Below, piece by piece: positions 9,455 through 63,585 of a stretch of 64,000 nucleotides of DNA. The notes under the pieces are model-generated. The model was not told where the DNA came from. It did not search any database and was given only the letters and a program-made list of their open reading frames with translations. This stretch comes from Felixounavirus LF82P9. The DNA is taken from the sequence record OZ035757.1. The stretch is one strand, 5' to 3'. The translations under genes were made by a program, and so were the position numbers. Within the stretch, counting starts at the first letter, position 1; every line of letters begins with the position of its first letter.

Positions 9455-12180
9455 TGCACCTCATACCAGCTTTTACCAACCTTACCAGTACCTGTAACAA
9501 GTGTTTCTTTCTTAAGACCTAAGTTTTTAGAAGCTTGTCCATAATACCAGTCAGTAACTGCTTTCACCTCTGCTGTCATACTTTCTGGACATTCCCAGCT
9601 TGTTTCATCGTGATATGCGCAGAGCAAACGAGCACCAATAGCTGGTTGACGACCATTCAACTTCATCAAACCTTCGTCAATCATACGACGACAAGCAAGG
9701 TTGATTGCCTCATTTTGAATCTGAGCCTCTGAACCCATCAAAAGGTAGTTCAACAGTTTGTGTGGAGATTTACACCACAACCAAGCTCCAGCAACCTTTA
9801 CGAAGCCCCCTTTAGAGATTGCAGCGGTCTTACCAAACACCTCTTCAAGTGCCTTTTTAGTTGCTTTGTAGTCAGCTTCCAAGTTATCTAATAGTTTCTT
9901 AATCTTTGGCAAACGCACAAAGTAAGTCTGTTTAGTTAATGCGCCTTCCTGAGTAGTTGCAGCTTTAATCGTCTTAGCAAACTTCTCATCCCCTGCACCG
10001 AACAGTAGTGCATAGATACCATTCTTAGCTTTCTTACGACCTTTGCTAATCTCATGGAGAAGATTCTCATCCTGAGTAGCTCGACAAGTCAAGATATCCT
10101 GCTCATCGTTCAAGCTAAAGTAGATACTGTTCAGTGTATGTGCATCAGTCCCTGAATAAACAACGTACAGGTCATTCTCAGAGTCATAGCGAAGGTACTT
10201 ATCAATCTCTGGGTTGAGGTACTCATCAAAATGTTTACAGTAATAACGTCCATCTTCTTGACGAATAAACTCAATCTCTTCTTTACCTTGTGTTACCGCT
10301 TTGGTGAACTCTTTATCACCCATAAAGTTACAAAGTAGAACTAACTGGGCTGAGTTCATATCAACAGAGACTACGTTGGTTCCCTCTTCACAAATCCACA
10401 CTGCCCTCATTGGTTCTCCATAGACAGCAGCACCAGACGGTACGTTCACAATACCATACTGTGTCATACGTCCAGTTGAAGTACCAAACACCATTGCACC
10501 AGCACTAAGGCGACCATCAGGACGAATCTGGTTCAACCAACCTTTTTCATCATCCTTTGAGTTCTCAATAGTTCTGCGTCGGTGCATCAAAGTATAGTAC
10601 TTAGCAATCTTCTGTCCAAGCTCACCTTCAATCGTATCATAAGATGATTCAGTAAGTTTTGGTGAAGTACGGATTAAGCAAGGCTCAAGCAAATCTGTGT
10701 ACTTCTTCACAGACCAGTTATGCTCAATGTACTGAACACCTTCATGTTCAACATAACTTAAACCACAACGTTCTACCATCTCCTGCCACTTAGGATGTTT
10801 TGTAATCATCTTTTTATTGTCTTTGAAACGACAAACTTTGACAGGGCGGCCGTCTGAGTCTTTCTTGTAGTTCCAGTCATCTGGAATCCAACCAACTGAT
10901 TTCAAGTAGTCTTTAACAACTGCTACCTGAGTCATACGAGAAACTTCAAACTCAATTGGTGTATATGGTGCATCAATCAAACCTGTGTAGCGACTTGACT
11001 CAAGTTCAAAGTGGTTAACAACGTGGCTGTTATAGTACTTCACAGTTTTGACTGTTTTTACTGGCTTCCAGTCTTTGCATTTCTTACCAATCTTTGCATT
11101 CAACTCATTGCAAATTGCACGAGCATCCTTCATTGCTACAAAGCCTTCCTTGTACTCTTCCCCAGTTACAGAGTTGGTTGGTGTATAGCAATTCCTCTTT
11201 TCAATGTTAAAAATCTTTGTAGTTGGCTTACCAAATGGCTTGATTTCGTATGTCTGCATCTCACCGTTACGCACCTGTTGACGGTACTTCGTCTTAGGAT
11301 ACTTGGTAATTCTTTTCAGTCCATCTGCATGACCAAATGCTTCAACATACTCATTCCAAGCTTTTGCAAACTCTTCTCCAGTAACTTTACCTTTGGTCTT
11401 AATAGTTGGAGGTAGATGTGGTTCAACCTCTGAAGCAAGCTCATTAGTCAACTTGTCAAGTTCCTTTACATGGAACTCCATAAGCTCTTTATCAGCTTTC
11501 CAGCCATTGATAGCTTGTTGACTCATCCAAAAAGATGTTTCTTTAGCTCGCATGTAGGTTTCATAAGTATCTATGCCACACTTCTTAAGCTTGAGATATT
11601 CATTATCAAGTGCCCGTTTAGTTTTGGCGTTAATACGGATATCTTCTACAACACGAGTGAAGATTTCTGCATTCCACACACCCCAATGTTCAATCTCTGG
11701 TTTACGAACACCGACACGAGCACCCCATGCAGCCAAACCATGAGCACCTTTATAACCCTTTGGAGTTGGTCTATCCATCCACTGAACACGAGACTGGATA
11801 AGAGAATCCTGAAAGAAATTACTCCACGGTTTACACTTTGGATTATCAAAGTTCCATAAATCAGGTGCAATGTGATTGAAAACCCACCAGTCATAACCGA
11901 GACCGTTATGGATGCAAAGACGTTTTGCCTTTAACGCAAACTCAATACCTTCACGTAAGCCACCCTTAATGTACTTGGTATACTTGTGACCGAGGATAGG
12001 CTCATCTGTAAAGACCCATACAGGCGGCTCTTCATCGTCAGATTTATAGTCTGCGAAAGCCATTACGTGCACTTTAGTGAACTCAAGGAGTAAACCATCA
12101 GTTTCTGTATCACCAACTAAATGTAAGTTTTTAAAATCTACGTTTTCCATTTTTACTCCCTCTAAAATCATTAACCTCAT
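9451..12180 (-). CDS. DNA polymerase, family A (T7-like)
   Basis: 909 aa; DTETDG exonuclease motif, Pol I motifs (VDMNSAQL, YALLFGAGDEK, AYHDETSWE) alignable to T7 gp5. Confidence 0.9.
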   Translation of the reverse strand: MRLMILEGVKMENVDFKNLHLVGDTETDGLLLEFTKVHVMAFADYKSDDEEPPVWVFTDEPILGHKYTKYIKGGLREGIEFALKAKRLCIHNGLGYDWWVFNHIAPDLWNFDNPKCKPWSNFFQDSLIQSRVQWMDRPTPKGYKGAHGLAAWGARVGVRKPEIEHWGVWNAEIFTRVVEDIRINAKTKRALDNEYLKLKKCGIDTYETYMRAKETSFWMSQQAINGWKADKELMEFHVKELDKLTNELASEVEPHLPPTIKTKGKVTGEEFAKAWNEYVEAFGHADGLKRITKYPKTKYRQQVRNGEMQTYEIKPFGKPTTKIFNIEKRNCYTPTNSVTGEEYKEGFVAMKDARAICNELNAKIGKKCKDWKPVKTVKTVKYYNSHVVNHFELESSRYTGLIDAPYTPIEFEVSRMTQVAVVKDYLKSVGWIPDDWNYKKDSDGRPVKVCRFKDNKKMITKHPKWQEMVERCGLSYVEHEGVQYIEHNWSVKKYTDLLEPCLIRTSPKLTESSYDTIEGELGQKIAKYYTLMHRRRTIENSKDDEKGWLNQIRPDGRLSAGAMVFGTSTGRMTQYGIVNVPSGAAVYGEPMRAVWICEEGTNVVSVDMNSAQLVLLCNFMGDKEFTKAVTQGKEEIEFIRQEDGRYYCKHFDEYLNPEIDKYLRYDSENDLYVVYSGTDAHTLNSIYFSLNDEQDILTCRATQDENLLHEISKGRKKAKNGIYALLFGAGDEKFAKTIKAATTQEGALTKQTYFVRLPKIKKLLDNLEADYKATKKALEEVFGKTAAISKGGFVKVAGAWLWCKSPHKLLNYLLMGSEAQIQNEAINLACRRMIDEGLMKLNGRQPAIGARLLCAYHDETSWECPESMTAEVKAVTDWYYGQASKNLGLKKETLVTGTGKVGKSWYEVH

Positions 12181-56758: not shown

Positions 56759-58174
56759 ATGAGCGAATTATTTAAACATGCGCACCTTCATGCAGGTCGA
56801 ACTGAAAATGGTGCTGTAAACCATACTTCATCAATGTCTGCTCTTGTGGACTTTTACAAAGCTGCTGGTTCTAGCCGTAGCAATGTAGAAATCTTACCAG
56901 ACTTGTTCTACAAAGCTTTGCATGAGGATGTTGATGTTGCAGTTCGTATTTTACTGCATATGCGAGATGTACGAGAAGGTATGGGTGAGCGTAAAGCTTT
57001 CCGAACTGTTTTACTTCAAGCGATTGAAGATAAAGTTCTAGAGTCTACACAGGTTCTTCGCATTATGGATAAGATTGCAGAGCTTGGTCGCTTTGATGAT
57101 TTCAAAATCTTCGTGGGTACTCGTTTCGAGACAGATGCCTTCAAGCATTTAGAAGCAGCATTACTAGACCCTGCAACAGCAGGTTTGGCAGCTAAGTGGT
57201 TACCACGAGTCAAACCACGTCATAAGCAGTTTGTAAAACGTTTCTGCAAGTTTGCCAACTTGAGTGAGAAAGAGTACCGCACACTGTTGTCTGCACTATC
57301 TGATACAGTTGAGCAAAAAATCTCTGCTAATGAGTTTGGTAAGATTGACTACAGTAAGATTCCTTCACTTGCTGCTGCACGTTACCAAAAACTGTTTAAC
57401 CGTAAAGATGGAGAGCGTTACAAAGCTTACATCGAGTCCTTATCAAAAGGTGAGACTAAGATTAACGCTGGTGCTGTTTACCCATACGATGTGATTAAAT
57501 CTGTCAAGTATGGTAATGCAGATGTTGCTAATGAGCAGTGGAAAGCACTACCAAACTGGATGGCAGAAGGTGAAAACATCTTGTGTATGTCTGATGTATC
57601 AAGTTCAATGTCTTGGGTGAATTTTGGCTCCATTACTGCTCTGGATATTGGTGTATCACTTGCCTTGTATGTAGCAGAACGCAATACAGGTTGCTTTAAG
57701 AATGAGTTAATGGTTTATTCAACAAACCCTCACTTCATCGAACTGAGTGGTGATTTACGAAACCGTCATCGTCAGGTGATGCGACACGTTGAATATGGCT
57801 CAACTAACTTACAAGCAGCTTTTGACCGCATTCTTGAAACAGGTAAAAGAAACAACTTGACTCAGAAAGATATGCCAAGTAAGCTTATCATCTTCTCCGA
57901 TATGGAGTTCAATCAGGTTGATGGAGCTAACGGTCGTACAAACTTTGAAGCAATTCAGAGTAAGTACAAAAAAGCTGGATATGAGATGCCACAACTGGTA
58001 TTCTGGTACTTAGCAAACCGTAATGGTACTTGCGAAGTATCTGTTAAGGATAACGGTGTAGCAATGGTATCAGGGTTCTCTCCAGCCACTTTAAAAGCTC
58101 TGCTTGGTGGTGAGAAGTTTGACCCAATCAGTGTAATGCTCAAAGCAGTAATGATTGACCGTTATATCTGGTAA
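56759..58174 (+). CDS. vWA-domain protein with large N-terminal helical domain (Ro60/TROVE-like architecture)
   Basis: C-terminal region has MIDAS-like D-x-S-x-S (CMSDVSSSM), downstream T and D (LIIFSDMEF); ~280-aa N-terminal domain; directly upstream of tRNA array. Confidence 0.5.
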   Translation: MSELFKHAHLHAGRTENGAVNHTSSMSALVDFYKAAGSSRSNVEILPDLFYKALHEDVDVAVRILLHMRDVREGMGERKAFRTVLLQAIEDKVLESTQVLRIMDKIAELGRFDDFKIFVGTRFETDAFKHLEAALLDPATAGLAAKWLPRVKPRHKQFVKRFCKFANLSEKEYRTLLSALSDTVEQKISANEFGKIDYSKIPSLAAARYQKLFNRKDGERYKAYIESLSKGETKINAGAVYPYDVIKSVKYGNADVANEQWKALPNWMAEGENILCMSDVSSSMSWVNFGSITALDIGVSLALYVAERNTGCFKNELMVYSTNPHFIELSGDLRNRHRQVMRHVEYGSTNLQAAFDRILETGKRNNLTQKDMPSKLIIFSDMEFNQVDGANGRTNFEAIQSKYKKAGYEMPQLVFWYLANRNGTCEVSVKDNGVAMVSGFSPATLKALLGGEKFDPISVMLKAVMIDRYIW

Positions 58175-58339: not shown

Positions 58340-58416
58340 CTCTGTTTAGCTCAGCTTGGTAGAGCGTTCCGTTTGGGGCGGTAAGGCCGGAGGTTCAAGT
58401 CCTCCAACAGAGACCA
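58340..58416 (+). tRNA. tRNA-Pro(TGG)
   Basis: Cloverleaf; acceptor ctctgtt/aacagag; anticodon loop ttTGGgg; T-loop TTCAAGT; CCA encoded. Confidence 0.75.
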
Positions 58417-58423
58417 AATTAAT

Positions 58424-58501
58424 GTTCCAGTAGACAAAATGGTAAAGTCACCACTCTTTCAAAGTGGATATCTGAGGGTTCAAATCCCTTCTGGAACGCC
58501 A
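58424..58501 (+). tRNA. tRNA-Glu(TTC)
   Basis: Acceptor gttccag/ctggaac; anticodon loop ctTTCaa; T-loop TTCAAAT; CCA encoded. Confidence 0.8.
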
Positions 58502-58508
58502 GTTTTGA

Positions 58509-58581
58509 CAGAAGACCAATTACAGCAAACTTAATCTTATTCATCTGAAGGTAAATCGGACAAAGAAGAGATTTGGTCTGG
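58509..58581 (+). other. box-bounded spacer element E1 (candidate small structured RNA)
   Basis: 5' box CAGAAGACCaaTTACAGCAAA, 3' box tGGTCTGGt; AGACC/GGTCT can pair; family recurs at 58676, 59133, 59220. Confidence 0.4.
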
Positions 58582-58592
58582 TCATTAAGAAT

Positions 58593-58669
58593 TGCGGGTA
58601 TAGAGAAAGGGCGTCTCACATGTCTCATTAGCATGGTATCGGCAGGTTCGACTCCTGCACCCGCCTCCA
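58593..58669 (+). tRNA. tRNA-Met-like(CAT), atypical
   Basis: Anticodon loop ctCATta; T-loop TTCGACT; CCA encoded; 1:72 mismatch (U-C) and extra nt before D-stem. Confidence 0.5.
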
Positions 58670-58675
58670 AATTTA

Positions 58676-58741
58676 CAGAAGACCGTTTACAGCAAAATTG
58701 AATGAAATTTTTAGCGGAAAAAATTGAAAGATACGGTCTGG
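58676..58741 (+). other. box-bounded spacer element E2
   Basis: 5' box CAGAAGACCgtTTACAGCAAA, 3' box cGGTCTGGt. Confidence 0.4.
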
Positions 58742-58754
58742 TAATACTAAACAT

Positions 58755-58831
58755 GGTTAGGAAGCACATAAGGTATGTGCGGTCGCCTGTTAAGCGAATG
58801 GCACAGGGTTCGAATCCCTGACTAACCGCCA
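58755..58831 (+). tRNA. tRNA-Asn(GTT)
   Basis: Anticodon loop ctGTTaa; T-loop TTCGAAT; CCA encoded. Confidence 0.8.
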
Positions 58832-58900
58832 AATTTAGGAGAGAAGCGATTGCTCACCGATTTGTAAGGTGCAAGTCCTTAGCCTGAATAGAAATTAAAT

Positions 58901-58988
58901 GTGTCGTTATCCCGTAGATGGTAGCGGTGGGGACTGTAAATCCCTTGTCATTGAGACTCGGTAGGTTCGACTCCTACACGGCACACCA
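58901..58988 (+). tRNA. tRNA-Tyr(GTA)
   Basis: Anticodon loop ctGTAaa; long variable arm; T-loop TTCGACT; CCA encoded. Confidence 0.8.
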
Positions 58989-58993
58989 ATAAA

Positions 58994-59071
58994 GGTTATG
59001 TAGTTTAATTTGGTTAAAATACTCCCCTGTCACGGGAGATGATGAGGGTTCAAATCCCTTCGTAACCGCCA
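58994..59071 (+). tRNA. tRNA-Asp(GTC)
   Basis: Anticodon loop ctGTCac; T-loop TTCAAAT; CCA encoded. Confidence 0.8.
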
Positions 59072-59132
59072 ATTTTGAGAGGGCTATTTAGCCCCTCCCT
59101 TAAAGGGTTCTTACGAGTATCCTTTAAAGGAG

Positions 59133-59206
59133 CAGAAGACCAAATACAGCAAGAACGTATGAAATTTCAAGCCAATTTAATTTTGAAAATTTAAAACTTG
59201 GTCTGG
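59133..59206 (+). other. box-bounded spacer element E3
   Basis: 5' box CAGAAGACCaaaTACAGCAAg, 3' box tGGTCTGGc. Confidence 0.4.
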
Positions 59207-59219
59207 CTCAACAAATTTA

Positions 59220-59351
59220 CAGAAGACCGTTTACAGCAAAACTTAAACAATCTATTTCTCCGGTAAAGAAAAGGCGAAGGTTCGATTCCTTCACTCGGCA
59301 GAGGTCGAGTTGGTGTAATGGTAGCACTTAAGATGATAAACAACGGTCTGG
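59220..59351 (+). other. box-bounded spacer element E4 (contains tRNA-fragment-like segments)
   Basis: 5' box CAGAAGACCgtTTACAGCAAA, 3' box cGGTCTGGt; interior holds T-arm plus 3'-acceptor-like segment without a matching 5' acceptor. Confidence 0.4.
59276..59300 (+). pseudogene. tRNA 3'-half-like remnant (T-arm only)
   Basis: gaagg-TTCGATT-ccttc followed by actcggc; no complementary 5' acceptor strand found within 200 nt upstream. Confidence 0.35.
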
Positions 59352-59500
59352 TAATTATCTTTGTAGATAAGTTATTAAGCTTACCTGTGAGTATGCGACC
59401 ACAAAGGGTGAAAGGGTAAATTCTAGATTTAAACCCAAAAAGGCACATCGCTACAGACCTTAAGCAAGTCTGGGTAGCTTATCTACAAAGATAATTTAAT

Positions 59501-59576
59501 GGAAGTGTAGCAGAATGGTGATGCGGCAGACTTTTAATCTGACAGGCGATGGGTTCGAATCCCTCCACTTCTACCA
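59501..59576 (+). tRNA. tRNA-Lys(TTT)
   Basis: Anticodon loop ctTTTaa; T-loop TTCGAAT; CCA encoded. Confidence 0.8.
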
Positions 59577-59581
59577 AAAAT

Positions 59582-59658
59582 GGTTCAGTCGCAGATAAGG
59601 TAATGCAAGGGTTTCATAAGCCCTATGAATGTGGGTTCGATTCCCACCTGAACCTCCA
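59582..59658 (+). tRNA. tRNA-Met(CAT) (or Ile-lysidine type)
   Basis: Anticodon loop ttCATaa; T-loop TTCGATT; CCA encoded. Confidence 0.75.
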
Positions 59659-59659
59659 A

Positions 59660-59735
59660 GCTGGTATAGTTAAGAAGGTTATAACACTCCCCTGATAAGG
59701 GAACATCGGTGGTTCGATTCCACCTACCAGTACCA
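59660..59735 (+). tRNA. tRNA-Ile(GAT)
   Basis: Anticodon loop ctGATaa; T-loop TTCGATT; CCA encoded. Confidence 0.8.
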
Positions 59736-59750
59736 ATTTCAATAAAGTTG

Positions 59751-59779
59751 TTGACATTGAGATGTGACTACTTTATAGT
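59751..59779 (+). promoter_or_regulatory. sigma70-like promoter inside tRNA array
   Basis: TTGACA, 17-nt spacer, TATAGT. Confidence 0.55.
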
Positions 59780-60010
59780 AACCTTAGTTTTCGTTGCGTA
59801 GCGTCTATTTTGCAAATTTAAAATAAATGCAAACGACAATGTTTTTCTGGCAGTAGCTTGATAGGCTAAACACCAGTGAGGTCTTCCAATCCCTCATCAA
59901 AGAATTTGGCGTACTAGCCCACGGTATGATTAATAAGGTGGGCAACATTCTAAAGGGTATCCCTTATGGGGCTTGGCTTAAATGCAATAAGTACCCTTTA
60001 AAATGTTAAT

Positions 60011-60087
60011 GCACCCTTAGTTCAATTGGATAGAGCAACGGTCTTCTAAATCGTTAGTTACAGGTTCGAATCCTGTAGGGTGTACCA
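60011..60087 (+). tRNA. tRNA-Arg(TCT)
   Basis: Anticodon loop ctTCTaa; T-loop TTCGAAT; CCA encoded. Confidence 0.8.
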
Positions 60088-60229
60088 AATAGTTAGCAGA
60101 TTGCTTAGACGACCTTATCGGGTCTCCGTGTAAGGAGGTGGTCTGTATCTCATGTTTTCCAGAACATGTAAATAATCTGAGAAGGGGCTTGACAGTGTTG
60201 AGATAATACGGTAAGCTTCGAATTGTAGT

Positions 60230-60312
60230 GTGGGACGATGTTAAGACTCTAAGGCATGAGCAACGGCCTCCAAAACCGTTTCAAAGGGGTTCAACTCCTC
60301 CGTCCCATGCCA
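60230..60312 (+). tRNA. tRNA-Trp-like(CCA), atypical
   Basis: Acceptor gtgggac/gtcccat and T-loop TTCAACT clear; anticodon loop ctCCAaa; ~8 extra nt between acceptor and D-stem. Confidence 0.4.
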
Positions 60313-60325
60313 AAGTCTTATTAGG

Positions 60326-60413
60326 GGTAGGTAGCGGCTAATGGCAGCCAAACAGTCTTGAAAACTGTTGCCACTGTAGAGATACGGTGAGGGTTCGACT
60401 CCTTTACTTACCG
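60326..60413 (+). tRNA. tRNA-Ser(TGA)
   Basis: Anticodon loop ctTGAaa; long variable arm; T-loop TTCGACT; CCA not encoded. Confidence 0.8.
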
Positions 60414-60671
60414 CCTAATAAGATTTTACACCGTCCATGCTTGCTCGCATTTTCGGTTTATCCCTCGTGTATTGTCGTACACACTGATAAAGCACCTAGT
60501 AGGTGTCACGGAGAAGAGATAATATCAAGCTCTCCAAAGGTTCTAGTCACCGGATTAAACAAGACTATGCAAAGACCTTTTTAGGTCTTTTTAGAGGGCT
60601 TCTAAGGTTATTACAGCTTGTTGTGGAACCTTGTTGCTTAGGTTCTTAGAAGTTCTCTAAAAAGATTTAAT

Positions 60672-60749
60672 GGGAGATTGACGGTAATTGGTAAACCTAC
60701 CATCCTTAGAAGTTGGTGTTTGAGGGTTCGAATCCCTTGTCTCCTACCA
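60672..60749 (+). tRNA. tRNA with anticodon TAG (Leu by anticodon), short variable arm
   Basis: Acceptor gggagat/gtctcct; anticodon loop ctTAGaa; T-loop TTCGAAT; CCA encoded; A73; anticodon stem has one mismatch. Confidence 0.5.
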
Positions 60750-60756
60750 AATTAAT

Positions 60757-60832
60757 GCAGGTGTAGCAAAATGGTTATGCGGCTGACTCTTAATCAGTAA
60801 GACGATGGGTTCAATTCCCTCCACCTGTACCA
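60757..60832 (+). tRNA. tRNA-Lys(CTT)
   Basis: Anticodon loop ctCTTaa; near-paralogue of tRNA-Lys(TTT); CCA encoded. Confidence 0.75.
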
Positions 60833-60838
60833 AAAAAT

Positions 60839-60914
60839 GGGGTCATAGTTTATATGGTTAAAATTCGAGTTTTGCAAACTTGGGAACTGAGTTCAATTCT
60901 CAGTGACTCCACCA
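60839..60914 (+). tRNA. tRNA-Ala(TGC)
   Basis: Anticodon loop ttTGCaa; G3-U70 wobble pair in acceptor stem; CCA encoded. Confidence 0.8.
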
Positions 60915-60920
60915 ATTAGT

Positions 60921-60995
60921 GCATCCATAGTTTAAACGGGAAAATTACAGTCTTCCAAACTGAGGTTGAGGGTTCGATTCCCTCTGGATGCTCCA
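60921..60995 (+). tRNA. tRNA-Gly(TCC)
   Basis: Anticodon loop ctTCCaa; T-loop TTCGATT; CCA encoded. Confidence 0.8.
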
Positions 60996-61002
60996 AATTA
61001 AT

Positions 61003-61078
61003 GCTCCTATCGTATAATTGGCTATTACGGTTGCCTTGTAAGCAACTTATCAGGGTTCGAATCCTTGTGGGAGCACCA
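61003..61078 (+). tRNA. tRNA-Thr(TGT)
   Basis: Anticodon loop ctTGTaa; perfect anticodon stem; CCA encoded. Confidence 0.8.
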
Positions 61079-61174
61079 ATTCAGAGGTCAAGTGAAAGAC
61101 CGCTTTGAGTCAACTGAAGACCGTAACAAATTCCACGGAGTTGAGTTAGCGGCACAACTTCAGACCTCTTTCAC

Positions 61175-61249
61175 ACTCGCTTAGTTTATATGGTAAAACA
61201 CCACCCTTACAAGATGAAGAAAAAGGTTCAAGTCCTTTAGTGAGTACCA
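61175..61249 (+). tRNA. tRNA-Val-like(TAC)
   Basis: Acceptor, D and T arms good; anticodon loop ctTACaa but anticodon stem only 3 of 5 pairs. Confidence 0.5.
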
Positions 61250-61250
61250 T

Positions 61251-61328
61251 GTTCCAGTATCCCAATTGGCAGAGGATGCAAGCTCAAACCTTGTATTAGT
61301 GACGGTTCGAATCCGTCTTGGAACACCA
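61251..61328 (+). tRNA. tRNA with anticodon CAA (Leu by anticodon), short variable arm
   Basis: Anticodon loop ctCAAac; 3-bp D-stem with long D-loop; 6-nt variable region; A73; CCA encoded. Confidence 0.55.
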
Positions 61329-61333
61329 ATTTT

Positions 61334-61409
61334 GCAGGATTAGTTCAAATGGATAGAGCAACAGTCTACGAAGCTGTTAATAGGGGTTCGAACCCCTTAT
61401 CCTGCACCA
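61334..61409 (+). tRNA. tRNA-Arg(ACG)
   Basis: Anticodon loop ctACGaa; T-loop TTCGAAC; CCA encoded. Confidence 0.8.
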
Positions 61410-61427
61410 GATAAGCAAGAGGAATTT

Positions 61428-61670
61428 ATGCAAACATTAATCGTCGTTGAACATGAAAATTCCAATAGTATTGAGTTTGTAAGGGTTCCCACTATAGATA
61501 CCCACATTTTCTTAAAAGTCGGATGGGAATGCGACCCAATAAAAGTAGAAAGATTTATTGGTCATTGCTTTGGTGGAAGACAACTTAAAAGTGTCAATTT
61601 TGAGACAATGTTACCAGAAAGCTCAGAAACAAGTAATAATGCTTACCTCCTTACGAGGGTTAGACAATGA
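61428..61670 (+). CDS. hypothetical protein inside tRNA array
   Basis: ORF track; starts 18 nt after tRNA-Arg. Confidence 0.4.
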   Translation: MQTLIVVEHENSNSIEFVRVPTIDTHIFLKVGWECDPIKVERFIGHCFGGRQLKSVNFETMLPESSETSNNAYLLTRVRQ

Positions 61671-62224
61671 GATACTTAAAATATGCTTCATGGATTTTCT
61701 TAGCTTTGCTAGAACCACTTGCAGCAATACTAGCAGTTATCTTAGCACCTTTTGTAGTTCCATTCTACAGTGAGAAGAAAGGACACTTACCTTTCGGGTT
61801 CAGATGGATGGAGACATATGACAACCCAATTGATGGTGATGAAGGTCACGTTAAAAGATGGGCTAATATCAGATGGATTGGTAAACTAGGTGTCTACATG
61901 CAAAGAGTCGGATGGCTCTGGAGAAACAAAGCTTATAACTTCTCTTACCATGTATTAGGAAGAGATGTAAAAGATGTTACTAAGTGGAAAGGTAATATCA
62001 ACGTAAGTTCTGACCCTGAAGATAATCAGACAGGTTATCTCCTAATGTGGAACAGTAATGCTTGGGGATTATTCGCTTTTATCCCATCAATTAAAATCTT
62101 TGGTAAACAATTTTACTGGAGAATTTATATTGGATGGAAACTAAAAAGTGTTGTCCCAGAAGAAAGAGCATTCTCAAGGGAAAGAGTTATGTTGGCATTC
62201 TTTATTCATCCACTGAGAAAGTAA
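61667..62224 (+). CDS. Trp-rich membrane protein inside tRNA array
   Basis: N-terminal TM (WIFLALLEPLAAILAVILAPFVV); ATGA overlap with upstream ORF. Confidence 0.45.
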   Translation: MRYLKYASWIFLALLEPLAAILAVILAPFVVPFYSEKKGHLPFGFRWMETYDNPIDGDEGHVKRWANIRWIGKLGVYMQRVGWLWRNKAYNFSYHVLGRDVKDVTKWKGNINVSSDPEDNQTGYLLMWNSNAWGLFAFIPSIKIFGKQFYWRIYIGWKLKSVVPEERAFSRERVMLAFFIHPLRK

Positions 62225-62232
62225 AGATTTAA

Positions 62233-62308
62233 AGGGGATTAGTTTACAAGGTTAAAACCTCGGTCTTTGAAATCGAAGAAGTTGGTTCAATTCCAACATC
62301 CCCCGCCA
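62233..62308 (+). tRNA. tRNA-Gln(TTG)
   Basis: Anticodon loop ctTTGaa; T-loop TTCAATT; A1-C72 mismatch; CCA encoded. Confidence 0.75.
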
Positions 62309-62310
62309 AT

Positions 62311-62389
62311 GCTCCATTACTCCAATTGGCAGAGAGGCCAGACTTAAAATCTGTGTTATGTATCGGTTCGAATCCGATATGGAGTACCA
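62311..62389 (+). tRNA. tRNA with anticodon TAA (Leu by anticodon), short variable arm
   Basis: Anticodon loop ctTAAaa; D-arm paralogous to the CAA tRNA; A73; CCA encoded. Confidence 0.55.
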
Positions 62390-62394
62390 AATTT

Positions 62395-62470
62395 AGCGGC
62401 ATAGCATAACTGGCAATGCAGCAGTCTCTGAAGCTGTCTTATTAAGGTTCAAATCCTTATGCCGCTGCCA
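62395..62470 (+). tRNA. tRNA-Gln(CTG)
   Basis: Anticodon loop ctCTGaa; T-loop TTCAAAT; CCA encoded. Confidence 0.8.
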
Positions 62471-62501
62471 CTTCTAAGGATTCTTACGAGAGTCCTTAAA
62501 T

Positions 62502-62577
62502 GTGGCCTTATCATAAATGGTAATGACCCATGCTGTGAACATGGTCTATACGGGTTCAAATCCCGTAGGTCACCCCA
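62502..62577 (+). tRNA. tRNA-His(GTG)
   Basis: Anticodon loop ctGTGaa; perfect anticodon stem; C73; CCA encoded. Confidence 0.8.
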
Positions 62578-62582
62578 ATTTA

Positions 62583-62659
62583 TAGTCCAAGTAGCTTATA
62601 TGGTTAAAGCGCGTGTCTGAAAAACATGAGAAGAGGGTTCAAATCCCACTGGACTACCA
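62583..62659 (+). tRNA. tRNA-Phe(GAA)
   Basis: Anticodon loop ctGAAaa; D-arm ta-gctt...aagc; acceptor register ambiguous by 2 nt. Confidence 0.65.
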
Positions 62660-62675
62660 ATTTCAAAGGTGCTTA

Positions 62676-63410
62676 ATGAAAGAGATGACAGAACAAGGTA
62701 AGGAGATTTTCAATCTCTTAAAAACCGGTAAAGGGTTTTCTAACCCCCTTATTACTGGTGCAGCAGTTCTCGGTGGAACCGTAGCTGCCTCTACATCACT
62801 TGTAAGCTCTATTAGCTCTGTATCAGACCCTGCAGTAAAGGATAAGCTTGTTGCTGCTGGACTTACAACAGTTCTGCTTAACAGCTTTACCACGAGTCTG
62901 ACAAGCACTACATCAACTACCAAAACACTAACAGATTACGGTCAAAAGTCCATTGATGAGTTTTCATCACGTATGCAGGTAGCAAAAGGTTACTCTAATG
63001 TTATGGGTGCAGCAGGTGAACAAGTTGGCTGTACACCATTTAGTGGTATTATGGGTGTTGCTACAGAGTATGGTCAAAAAGCTATTGATACGATTAACAG
63101 TGCACTAGATAGTGTTAATGGTGTGTTAAGTGACTTACAAGATGCTATTGACAAAGGTCTTGATACTATTTCTGATTTAGCTGAGCAAGCTGTTAGTAAG
63201 ATTAATGAAGGTATTTCAAAAATTACAGCTTATGCAGATGAAGTTGTGCAGATGATTGAAGAAGAAGCTGCTCTTATTGCAGAGTACCTTAAAACGAATA
63301 TCAATGGGTTCTTAGCAGGTATCTTACCAGACTGGTTTGATGATGCTTGTAAAACTGGTGTAATTGACACTATTGCAACACCAGAAATGAAGAACGCATT
63401 ACAGAAATAA
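62676..63410 (+). CDS. Ser/Thr-rich membrane protein inside tRNA array
   Basis: ORF 62613-63410 trimmed to Met after tRNA-Phe; hydrophobic segment then S/T-rich tract; stop 2 nt before tRNA-Ser. Confidence 0.45.
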   Translation: MKEMTEQGKEIFNLLKTGKGFSNPLITGAAVLGGTVAASTSLVSSISSVSDPAVKDKLVAAGLTTVLLNSFTTSLTSTTSTTKTLTDYGQKSIDEFSSRMQVAKGYSNVMGAAGEQVGCTPFSGIMGVATEYGQKAIDTINSALDSVNGVLSDLQDAIDKGLDTISDLAEQAVSKINEGISKITAYADEVVQMIEEEAALIAEYLKTNINGFLAGILPDWFDDACKTGVIDTIATPEMKNALQK

Positions 63411-63412
63411 AT

Positions 63413-63505
63413 GGAAGATTAACCCTAAAAGGTAAGGGAGCAGTTTGCTAAACTGCCAGTAGCTGAGAAATCGGTGTACCAGTTCAAGTCTGGTATCTTC
63501 CTCCA
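63413..63505 (+). tRNA. tRNA-Ser(GCT)
   Basis: Anticodon loop ttGCTaa; long variable arm; perfect acceptor ggaagat/atcttcc; CCA encoded. Confidence 0.85.
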
Positions 63506-63509
63506 ATTT

Positions 63510-63585
63510 GAATCCGTGACAGAAATGGCTATGTGCCTGTCTGCAAAACAGGTTTATAAGGGTTCGAGTCCCTTCGGATTCTCCA
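63510..63585 (+). tRNA. tRNA-Cys(GCA)
   Basis: Anticodon loop ctGCAaa; perfect anticodon stem; CCA encoded. Confidence 0.85.

Follow-up and report, generated by a model that had tools for sequence, protein, structure and literature searches.

Type I leucine tRNAs without a long variable arm in the tRNA array of Felixounavirus LF82P9

The 64,000-nucleotide stretch of Felixounavirus LF82P9 DNA analysed here (sequence record OZ035757.1; hereafter the window) contains a tRNA array on the plus strand (58340..63585) in which three genes combine leucine anticodons with the short variable region of a type I tRNA. Judged from their sequences, these genes, tRNA-Leu(UAG) (60672..60749), tRNA-Leu(CAA) (61251..61328) and tRNA-Leu(UAA) (62311..62389), all on the plus strand, are probably functional type I leucine tRNAs that are charged by the host's leucyl-tRNA synthetase (LeuRS) and decode leucine. 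Gene calls were made with ARAGORN and with the Rfam covariance model RF00005 (gathering score 29 bits) over the 64-kb window. ARAGORN agrees exactly with a preliminary description of the array, read by eye, on the coordinates and anticodons of the three genes (tag, caa and taa), and RF00005 scores them with 40.0, 44.0 and 47.5 bits, respectively, corresponding to E-values of 6e-5 to 5e-7 in the window. ARAGORN and Infernal, the kind of check that had been proposed, also agree on the positions of the leucine anticodons.

Each of the three genes is 78-79 nucleotides long, encoded CCA included, and the cloverleaves show the A73 and the short variable region that had been noticed by eye, the latter with 4-7 nucleotides. 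The T loop UUCGAAU is common to all of them, and each anticodon loop has the canonical form, in which U33 and A35 are present and position 37 is a purine. In the UAG gene, G1.U72, A73 and A37 are found together with a variable loop of 4-5 nucleotides, a U.U mismatch inside the anticodon stem, a weak and imperfect D stem and a D loop that is one nucleotide longer. The CAA gene has the D arm UCC-CAAUUGGCAGA-GGA, A73, U48 and a variable loop of 5-6 nucleotides, while the UAA gene has the D arm CUC-CAAUUGGCAGA-GAG, G1.U72, A73, U48 and a variable loop of 7 nucleotides, and is at least 99% identical across 215 phage records. Among the tRNAs of the window, the D-loop motif, A73 and U48 occur together only in the three leucine genes. 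The D arm of the CAA and UAA genes, a 3-bp stem with an 11-nucleotide loop, had been called unusual; the same parse is found in E. coli leuW, leuX and leuZ and in T4 tRNA-Leu, and this arrangement is the normal tRNA-Leu signature. The suggestion that the two genes are paralogues is reasonable, because they are 73% identical and a recombinant of both occurs in a related locus (L008, IMGVR_UViG_2974574300_000001). The tRNA-Leu(UAA) of that locus is chimeric: its 5' acceptor strand and D arm come from the CAA gene and the remainder from the UAA gene. The CAA gene is missing and the acceptor stem of the chimera is mismatched, as if recombination inside the D arm common to both genes had produced a deletion.

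The conservation of the fold was assessed in an alignment (A1) of 28 distinct type I leucine sequences from at least five phage lineages and several isoacceptor families, drawn from Felixounavirus, Suspvirus-like and Mooglevirus loci (Ounavirinae), Erwinia Kolesnikvirus, T5-like phages and Aeromonas phage Akh-2 (Demerecviridae), Salmonella phage SSE121 (Seunavirus), Xanthomonas phage X1 and Lactobacillus phage LpeD. The type I cloverleaf is paired in 96.1% of the 560 cells, 18 of the 20 pairs have changes on both sides, and the covariation score is 0.954, compared with 0.12-0.18 in controls in which the partners were slid by one to three columns. Since A1 spans several isoacceptor families, the fold is kept across the class. 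U8, A14, A15, G18, G19, A20a, U33, A35, U48, G53, U55, C56, A58, C61 and A73 are invariant, and 21 of the 28 sequences have a G1.U72 wobble beside A73, as does E. coli leuZ. In the UAG lineage, the anticodon stems of the relatives (CCATC/GTTGG, CCTCG/CGAGG and TCTCG/CGAGA) are fully compensated, and the UAG gene of the window is 81% identical to a T5-like tRNA-Leu(UAG). Two unrelated type I UAG alleles, 58% identical to each other, fill the same Ser(UGA)-Lys(CUU) slot in sister phages, which argues that a type I UAG decoder is being maintained. A loss of pairing and of tertiary nucleotides without compensation, as in a pseudogene, is not seen in the leucine genes; they are not pseudogenes, and their cloverleaf is maintained by compensatory change. 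A simple deletion of the arm from the type II UAA gene of Pectobacterium phage Wc4-1 was considered as the origin of the type I UAA gene and rejected: the stems differ throughout, so that the gene looks like a replacement rather than a deletion.

For E. coli, A73 is crucial for leucine identity, whereas the anticodon and the long arm are not (PMC9976931). Further determinants are A15-U48, G18G19, A20a, G18:U55, G19-C56 and U54:A58; variants of E. coli tRNA-Leu without the arm remain active, and the major determinant of tRNA-Ser is the size of its arm (PMC9976931). That review and a study of LeuRS recognition (PMC6614811) are the source of the list of determinants that was tested on A1. A73 is present in the three window genes and in 28/28 sequences of A1, and U8, A14, A15 and U48 are invariant columns. 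G18G19 and A20a lie in an 11-nucleotide loop on a 3-bp D stem, which the CAA and UAA genes parse exactly as the host and T4 do, and the D/T-loop pairs G18:U55, G19:C56 and U54:A58 are in place. The long (type II) arm, typical of bacterial tRNA-Leu, is missing. The preliminary description had argued that such tRNAs would need non-canonical recognition by LeuRS or would be charged differently; this is not favoured, as the determinants are invariant in 28 sequences and the arm lies outside the identity set (PMC9976931). Consistently, the isotype models of tRNAscan-SE put leucine first for the Sf14 orthologues (67.4, 49.1 and 60.2; PMC12482277).

The serine and tyrosine tRNAs of the array serve as an internal control: tRNA-Tyr(GUA) (58901..58988, 88 nucleotides), tRNA-Ser(UGA) (60326..60415, 90 nucleotides) and tRNA-Ser(GCU) (63413..63505, 93 nucleotides), all on the plus strand, keep their long variable arms, and the loss is limited to leucine within the array. 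The bacterial tyrosine synthetase needs the long variable arm. The arm would thus be retained in tRNA-Ser and tRNA-Tyr because the synthetase needs it, and lost in tRNA-Leu, where it is dispensable.

We infer leucylation by the host LeuRS from the sequences. In the mechanism proposed, the array transcript would be processed to mature leucine tRNAs, which the LeuRS of the host (E. coli or Salmonella) would leucylate by reading A73 and the elbow of the D and T loops (U8:A14, A15:U48, G18G19, A20a, G18:U55, G19:C56 and U54:A58), ignoring the long variable arm and the anticodon. The UAA and CAA tRNAs would then decode UUA/UUG and the UAG tRNA would decode CUA/CUG, codons that are expected to be of higher use in the A+T-rich phage than in its host. 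In 63 open reading frames (ORFs) of the window, the leucine codons are CTT (27%), TTA (24%), CTG (16%), TTG (14%), CTA (11%) and CTC (7%), while CUG makes up about half of the leucine codons of E. coli. The three leucine anticodons fit codon supplementation, since the ORFs are rich in TTA, TTG and CTA, with CTG at only 16%.

Several observations weigh against this mechanism. E. coli LeuRS was reported to charge only type II tRNA-Leu, showed no activity on a transcript of the Streptomyces coelicolor type I tRNA-Leu(CAA), and makes contact with the arm at nucleotides 47f-47i through its C-terminal domain (Fan et al., NAR 2019; PMC6614811). The failure of E. coli LeuRS may be explained by C48 of the Streptomyces transcript, where the phage tRNAs have U48, or by other differences. 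Furthermore, the UAG gene is the weakest of the three, with 40 bits, the U.U mismatch in the anticodon stem and the imperfect D stem, and position 37, in the host a G that is the site of 1-methylguanosine (m1G37), is A in the CUN-reading members of A1. Finally, the tRNAs of phage Bas63 are mostly non-essential on laboratory strains (PMC11482910). In favour of the proposed reading, Table 1 of PMC4810235 names tRNA-Leu among the T5 tRNA species of classical biochemical work, and in the T5-like locus examined the leucine genes are all type I. If the host LeuRS charges them, such phage tRNAs would be natural counter-examples to the published restriction of E. coli LeuRS to type II tRNA-Leu, and would offer ready substrates for defining what LeuRS reads.

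The loss of the arm, together with the altered anticodon loops, could also have been selected because it turns the tRNAs into poor substrates for tRNA-targeting nucleases or toxins directed at the type II tRNA-Leu of the host. The leucine function would be kept, and phage genes could still be translated under attack. We consider this explanation unlikely. Human SLFN11 targets type II tRNAs, the leucine loops of the phage differ from those of the host at positions 32, 37 and 38, and the Trp-like gene and the first CAU tRNA of the array (both described below) are also altered in shape. There is precedent for phage tRNAs that evade anticodon nucleases by changes in the loop (PMC10264068; PMC13056530). 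However, the analysis turned up no bacterial nuclease with a specificity for type II tRNA-Leu or its arm, and the paper on bacterial Schlafen proteins reports no type II tRNA specificity (PMC13056530). The chromosomal type I tRNA-Leu of Actinobacteria means that the class exists outside phage defence, and both types occur together in SSE121, X1 and Wc4-1. Escape from anticodon nucleases, an idea of the preliminary description, is therefore a possible role for which nothing in the analysis offers support. In a broader scheme, coliphage arrays would carry shape-altered Leu, Trp and CAU tRNAs (without the arm, with the 9-nucleotide connector and with an open 1:72 pair, respectively) that have kept all their synthetase determinants and lost the handles by which the tRNA-targeting immunity of hosts or rivals seizes them. 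The loss of the leucine arm would be an anti-defence trait directed at a putative type II-specific nuclease, and charging of type I tRNA-Leu by an enterobacterial LeuRS would have its first natural proof in these genes; we regard this scheme as improbable.

There is a still smaller chance that the host LeuRS does not accept the three tRNAs as substrates and that, uncharged or mischarged, they serve as decoys or sponges that occupy nucleases, modification enzymes or stress sensors, or that a different synthetase charges them. This would agree with the inactivity of E. coli LeuRS on a natural type I tRNA-Leu (PMC6614811) and with the dispensability of the tRNAs in laboratory hosts (PMC11482910). 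However, all of the E. coli LeuRS determinants are invariant, among them U48 and A20a, for which a decoy would have no use, the anticodon loops have the canonical form and CCA is encoded, the three isoacceptors match the leucine codons enriched in the phage, and isotype models favour leucine (PMC12482277), all of which speaks for leucine tRNAs. It is very improbable that some of these tRNAs are instead Y RNAs that partner the Ro60 homologue predicted upstream of the array (ORF 56759-58174), an idea raised for Bas63 in the PhageMaP preprint (PMC11482910). A Y RNA of this kind has a capped acceptor-like hairpin, no 3' CCA and a terminal stem in place of the anticodon arm, as found in the intergenic element at 59217-59356, whereas the leucine and Trp-like genes have open acceptor stems, a discriminator, CCA and normal anticodon loops. 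Type I leucine genes also occur in arrays without an adjacent Ro60 gene (L003, L046). In the Kolesnikvirus and Wc4-1 loci, which have such genes, both the terminal-stem motif of the intergenic elements and an adjacent Ro60 gene are absent. Since type I tRNA-Leu persists without the motif or a Ro60 neighbour, the leucine and Trp genes are tRNAs and not Y RNAs, and the intergenic elements at 58506-59356 are the better candidates for Y RNAs. That the leucine genes are decaying pseudogenes, or mis-folded calls with the anticodon elsewhere, is hardly credible and largely refuted by the covariation of 18/20 pairs and 96% pairing, by the near-identity of the UAA gene in 215 genomes and by the agreement of ARAGORN and Infernal on the anticodons, although their covariance scores are lowish (40-47.5 bits, against 53-65 bits for most of the array, as is expected when type I tRNA-Leu is scored against general or type II models) and a T5-like homologue is labelled tRNA-Pseudo or tRNA-OTHER in some records.

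The type I leucine tRNAs are not confined to the window. A scan of IMG/VR for the D loop CCAATTGGCAGA followed by a leucine anticodon loop gave 120 loci among the matches listed, in which 119/119 motif-bearing tRNAs are type I, with cores of 74-76 nucleotides and very diverse stems, many of them within multi-tRNA arrays. When the same pattern was searched in one genome per GTDB species, 87/87 motif-bearing tRNAs among the matches listed were type I as well, mostly single chromosomal genes for tRNA-Leu(UAA) or tRNA-Leu(CAA) in relatives of Mycobacterium, Nocardia, Gordonia, Rhodococcus, Corynebacterium and Arthrobacter. The loci L168-L251 have type I tRNA-Leu(UAA) or tRNA-Leu(CAA) with CCAAUUGGCAGAG as single copies across Mycobacteriales, Micrococcales and other Actinomycetota, and a few of the listed matches, from Cyanobacteria and Bacteroidota, lie in multi-tRNA clusters that may be prophage arrays. 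With the motif, a leucine anticodon loop and a core of 74-78 nucleotides, the CAA and UAA genes of the window belong to the CCAAUUGGCAGAG class, while the UAG gene stands outside it and belongs to a T5-like GGAAUUGGYAUA group. The broader pattern AATTGGYAGA, with either arm length allowed, found 105 type II and 19 type I tRNAs, and the dinucleotide before AATTGG goes with the type: CC precedes it in type I only (13/13), GG or GA almost always in type II (105/107). Type I tRNA-Leu is a minority class, yet a coherent and common one. Both types are present in one phage in SSE121, X1 and Wc4-1, and T4 and its relatives have type II. In a full-text literature search, no description of a phage type I tRNA-Leu came up, and the word "variable" is absent from the Sf14 tRNA study (PMC12482277). 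Type I tRNA-Leu as such is already known; the leucine tRNAs described here are new members of it that had gone unremarked. The class is thus widespread in phages and Actinobacteria, beyond Streptomyces and mitochondria, which matters for annotation, where homologues are sometimes labelled pseudo or OTHER, and bears on the codon-compensation and anti-defence models of phage tRNAs.

Structurally, the unannotated tRNA-Trp-like gene of the array (60230..60312, plus strand) is more unusual than the leucine tRNAs. It is present in 235 phage records and almost never annotated, and neither ARAGORN, even with relaxed thresholds, nor RF00005 called it; its sole Rfam match is tRNA-Sec (RF01852, 23 bits). 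The extra nucleotides between the acceptor and D stems that had been noticed by eye are a conserved feature: a comparison of eight distinct variants, one of them from Pectobacterium phage Wc4-1, shows an 8-bp acceptor stem followed by an invariant 9-nucleotide connector, AUGUUAAGA. The 3-bp D stem varies as CUC/GAG, CAC/GUG and UAC/GUG, and the 5-bp anticodon stem as AACGG/CCGUU, GUAAG/CUUAC and others. The anticodon loop has 9 nucleotides (C-CUCCAAA-A), with C.A (31:39) or C.C closing the usual 7, and a T stem of 4 bp is followed by G73-CCA. Pairing holds in 99.4% of the cells of these variants, and changes on both sides are found in 8 pairs, a number that was reached in 1 of 500 shuffles; the slid controls had no such pair at all. 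When 6 nucleotides of the connector are deleted in silico, ARAGORN calls tRNA-Trp(cca). The gene has the anticodon CCA and G73 of a tRNA-Trp and departs from the canonical geometry of a 7-bp acceptor stem, a 2-nucleotide connector, a 5-bp T stem and a 7-nucleotide loop with a standard closing pair. Most likely it is a working tRNA-Trp with a conserved inserted connector, as read from its variants. A tRNA-Sec was rejected, as both a UCA anticodon and a long arm are lacking, and so was a quadruplet decoder, as the loop is that of host tRNA-Trp with C31.A39 as its closing pair. The anticodon arm is presumably nearly identical to that of host tRNA-Trp, a resemblance that serves as a lead and not as a test. 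Like E. coli tRNA-Trp, the gene has G73 and A1-U72 or G1.U72, and it shares the 8-bp acceptor stem with bacterial tRNA-Sec. It differs from both in its connector of 9 instead of 2 nucleotides, in acceptor and T stems of 8/4 instead of 7/5 or 8/5 bp, in C31.A39 and in the lack of a long arm. We know of no described tRNA class with such a connector. In the sister Felixounaviruses L004 and L010 (about 11390-11460, corresponding to ~60100-60320 of the window), the Trp-like gene and tRNA-Arg(UCU) are missing, and another tRNA-Trp(CCA) of 71 nucleotides with a degenerate D arm is found instead. Two atypical tRNAs that are unrelated to each other thus occupy the Trp slot, which makes the array a mosaic. 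Since the Trp-like gene is unannotated in ~235 genomes, such phages are wrongly said to lack tRNA-Trp.

Two further tRNAs had been singled out for their first pair. The CAU-anticodon tRNA at 58593..58669 (plus strand), called by ARAGORN and not found by RF00005 on the window, is indeed mismatched at 1:72 (U1.C72), has A11:U24 and U73, and stays mismatched throughout its relatives, as U.C, C.C or A.C, whereas the T stem shows covariation among them. The 1:72 mismatch is a mark of bacterial initiator tRNAs; the three consecutive G-C pairs that close off their anticodon stem at its lower end are absent (CAUGU/GCAUG). The tRNA is possibly initiator-like, with membership of that class not established. 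U73 is found in both CAU tRNAs of the array (58593-58669 and 59582-59658). In tRNA-Gln(UUG) (62233..62308, plus strand; G73) the A1.C72 seen by eye holds, and its phage relatives have A.C, C.C or U.U, whereas host tRNA-Gln has U1-A72. The mismatch fits recognition by glutaminyl-tRNA synthetase, because this enzyme prefers a first pair that can be opened. The 1:72 mismatches of both tRNAs are conserved features that would fit initiator-like behaviour and glutaminyl-tRNA synthetase recognition, respectively, and not decay.

Directly upstream of the array, the ORF at 56759-58174 (plus strand) encodes a protein of 471 amino acids with matches to Pfam DUF2828 and DUF7788 that falls into a PHROG family annotated as "RNA-binding protein". 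A sequence search of the PDB gave nothing, and Ro60 emerged from the fold search alone: with the AlphaFold model (mean predicted local distance difference test score of 89), the top twelve PDB fold matches are all Ro60, with E-values of 8e-9 to 7.5e-7 and template modelling scores of 0.37-0.66. On the predicted fold the protein is a Ro60 (TROVE + vWA) homologue, with more than 2500 relatives, mostly in phages. The Bas63 protein upstream of the tRNA genes was also described as Ro60-like and as countering the ppl defence, and some of the annotated Bas63 tRNAs were speculated to be Y RNAs (PMC11482910). In the array, four unannotated intergenic elements on the plus strand (about 58506-58586, about 58673-58746, about 59130-59211 and about 59217-59356) share a terminal stem, CAGAAGACC-NN / NN-GGUCUGG, together with an internal loop of 3-nt/1-nt and the motif ACAGCAA; from copy to copy, the NN positions show covariation. 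The stem of the fourth element also encloses a tRNA-like module whose hairpins follow the YrlA order, namely V, T (GAAGG-UUCGAUU-CCUUC), a capped acceptor-like hairpin and D; the acceptor-like hairpin is fully resubstituted in Suspvirus-like and Mooglevirus-like loci and covaries across genera. The elements have no match to the Rfam families YrlA, Y_RNA and transfer-messenger RNA (tmRNA) at E<=10. We take them as candidate Y RNAs of the Ro60 homologue beside them. As with YrlA and YrlB beside bacterial Ro60 (Chen et al. 2014, PMC4201824), they lie on the same strand and within ~1.2 kb of Ro60, and the fourth element resembles YrlA in its long terminal stem enclosing the V, T, capped acceptor-like and D hairpins. 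They differ from YrlA in the lack of an Rfam match and in having CAGAAGACC/GGUCUGG instead of the published GNCGAAN0-1G, and the Ro60-like protein of the window is annotated as DUF2828 and not as TROVE.

The array as a whole has 26 ARAGORN-called tRNA genes with three small ORFs interspersed, and 24/26 of the tRNAs are above the gathering score of RF00005. The preliminary description had counted anticodons for all 20 amino acids; the 26 genes cover 19 of them, and tryptophan is added only if the Trp-like gene is counted. Felixounaviruses belong to the Ounavirinae and infect Escherichia, Salmonella and Shigella. The 5.3-kb region 58300-63600 matches many Felixounavirus genomes at 94-97% identity, and the annotation of KhF1 gives the same gene set, with three tRNA-Leu and with tRNA-Trp absent from the annotation. 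tRNA-Ser(GCU) (63413-63505) has U73, compared with G73 in E. coli tRNA-Ser, and the encoded 3' end of tRNA-Ser(UGA) (60326-60415) is CC-U, not CCA. Two of the ORFs embedded on the plus strand encode a protein of 185 amino acids with a DUF7338 match (61667-62224) and one of 265 amino acids with DUF7217 and weak PHROG similarity to tape-measure and GTP-binding families (62613-63410). A promoter scan of the array region found no excess of sites (14 against 11.3 expected from shuffles); the best promoter-like site of the region, TTGACA-17-TATAGT (11/12; 59751-60010, plus strand), is followed by ~230 nucleotides without a called gene, up to tRNA-Arg(UCU). A permuted tmRNA match at 59677-59861 is sub-threshold, with 29 bits against a gathering score of 47. 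By eye, the spacer between tRNA-Thr and tRNA-Val (~61081-61170, plus strand) shows long-range complementarity (AGAGGUC...GACCUCU and CUGAAG...CUUCAG) together with a GAAGACC motif resembling that of the Y-like elements, and may be another structured RNA.

Compared with known leucine tRNAs, the phage genes share with E. coli leuW, leuX and leuZ and with T4 tRNA-Leu the anticodons, the 3-bp D stem with its 11-nucleotide loop, A14, A15, G18G19, A20a, U48, A73 and the T loop. They differ from them in size, since the E. coli and T4 tRNAs have 85-87 nucleotides and a variable arm of 4-5 bp, in C13 of the CAA and UAA genes, where host and T4 have G13, and in A37, where the CUN reader of host and T4 has G37. 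The type I tRNA-Leu(CAA) of Streptomyces coelicolor (PMC6614811) and those of other Actinomycetota have, like the phage genes, a variable loop of the five-nucleotide class and keep U8:A14 and the D/T-loop elbow. The CCAAUUGGCAGAG D loop of the CAA and UAA genes is also that of Actinomycetota, with 87/87 of the genomic matches listed, mostly from Mycobacteriales and Micrococcales. Position 48 is C in the Streptomyces tRNA (loop ACAGC) and U in the phage tRNAs, and the Streptomyces LeuRS does not use A73 as an identity element but relies on a special leucine-specific domain (PMC6614811). The phage tRNAs have A73, lie in multi-tRNA arrays and would have to use an enterobacterial LeuRS, an enzyme reported to be inactive on the Streptomyces tRNA. 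Animal mitochondrial tRNA-Leu(UUR) is also type I, with A14 and A73 as determinants (PMC9976931), but its structure is fragile, its D loop is a different one and it is served by a mitochondrial LeuRS of its own. The engineered arm-less E. coli tRNA-Leu (Larkin 2002; Asahara 1998; Tocchini-Valentini 2000; as cited in PMC9976931) keep A73 and the D/T tertiary pairs, as the phage genes do, and according to the same source remain substrates of LeuRS. These are laboratory constructs, of which the phage genes would be the natural equivalents.

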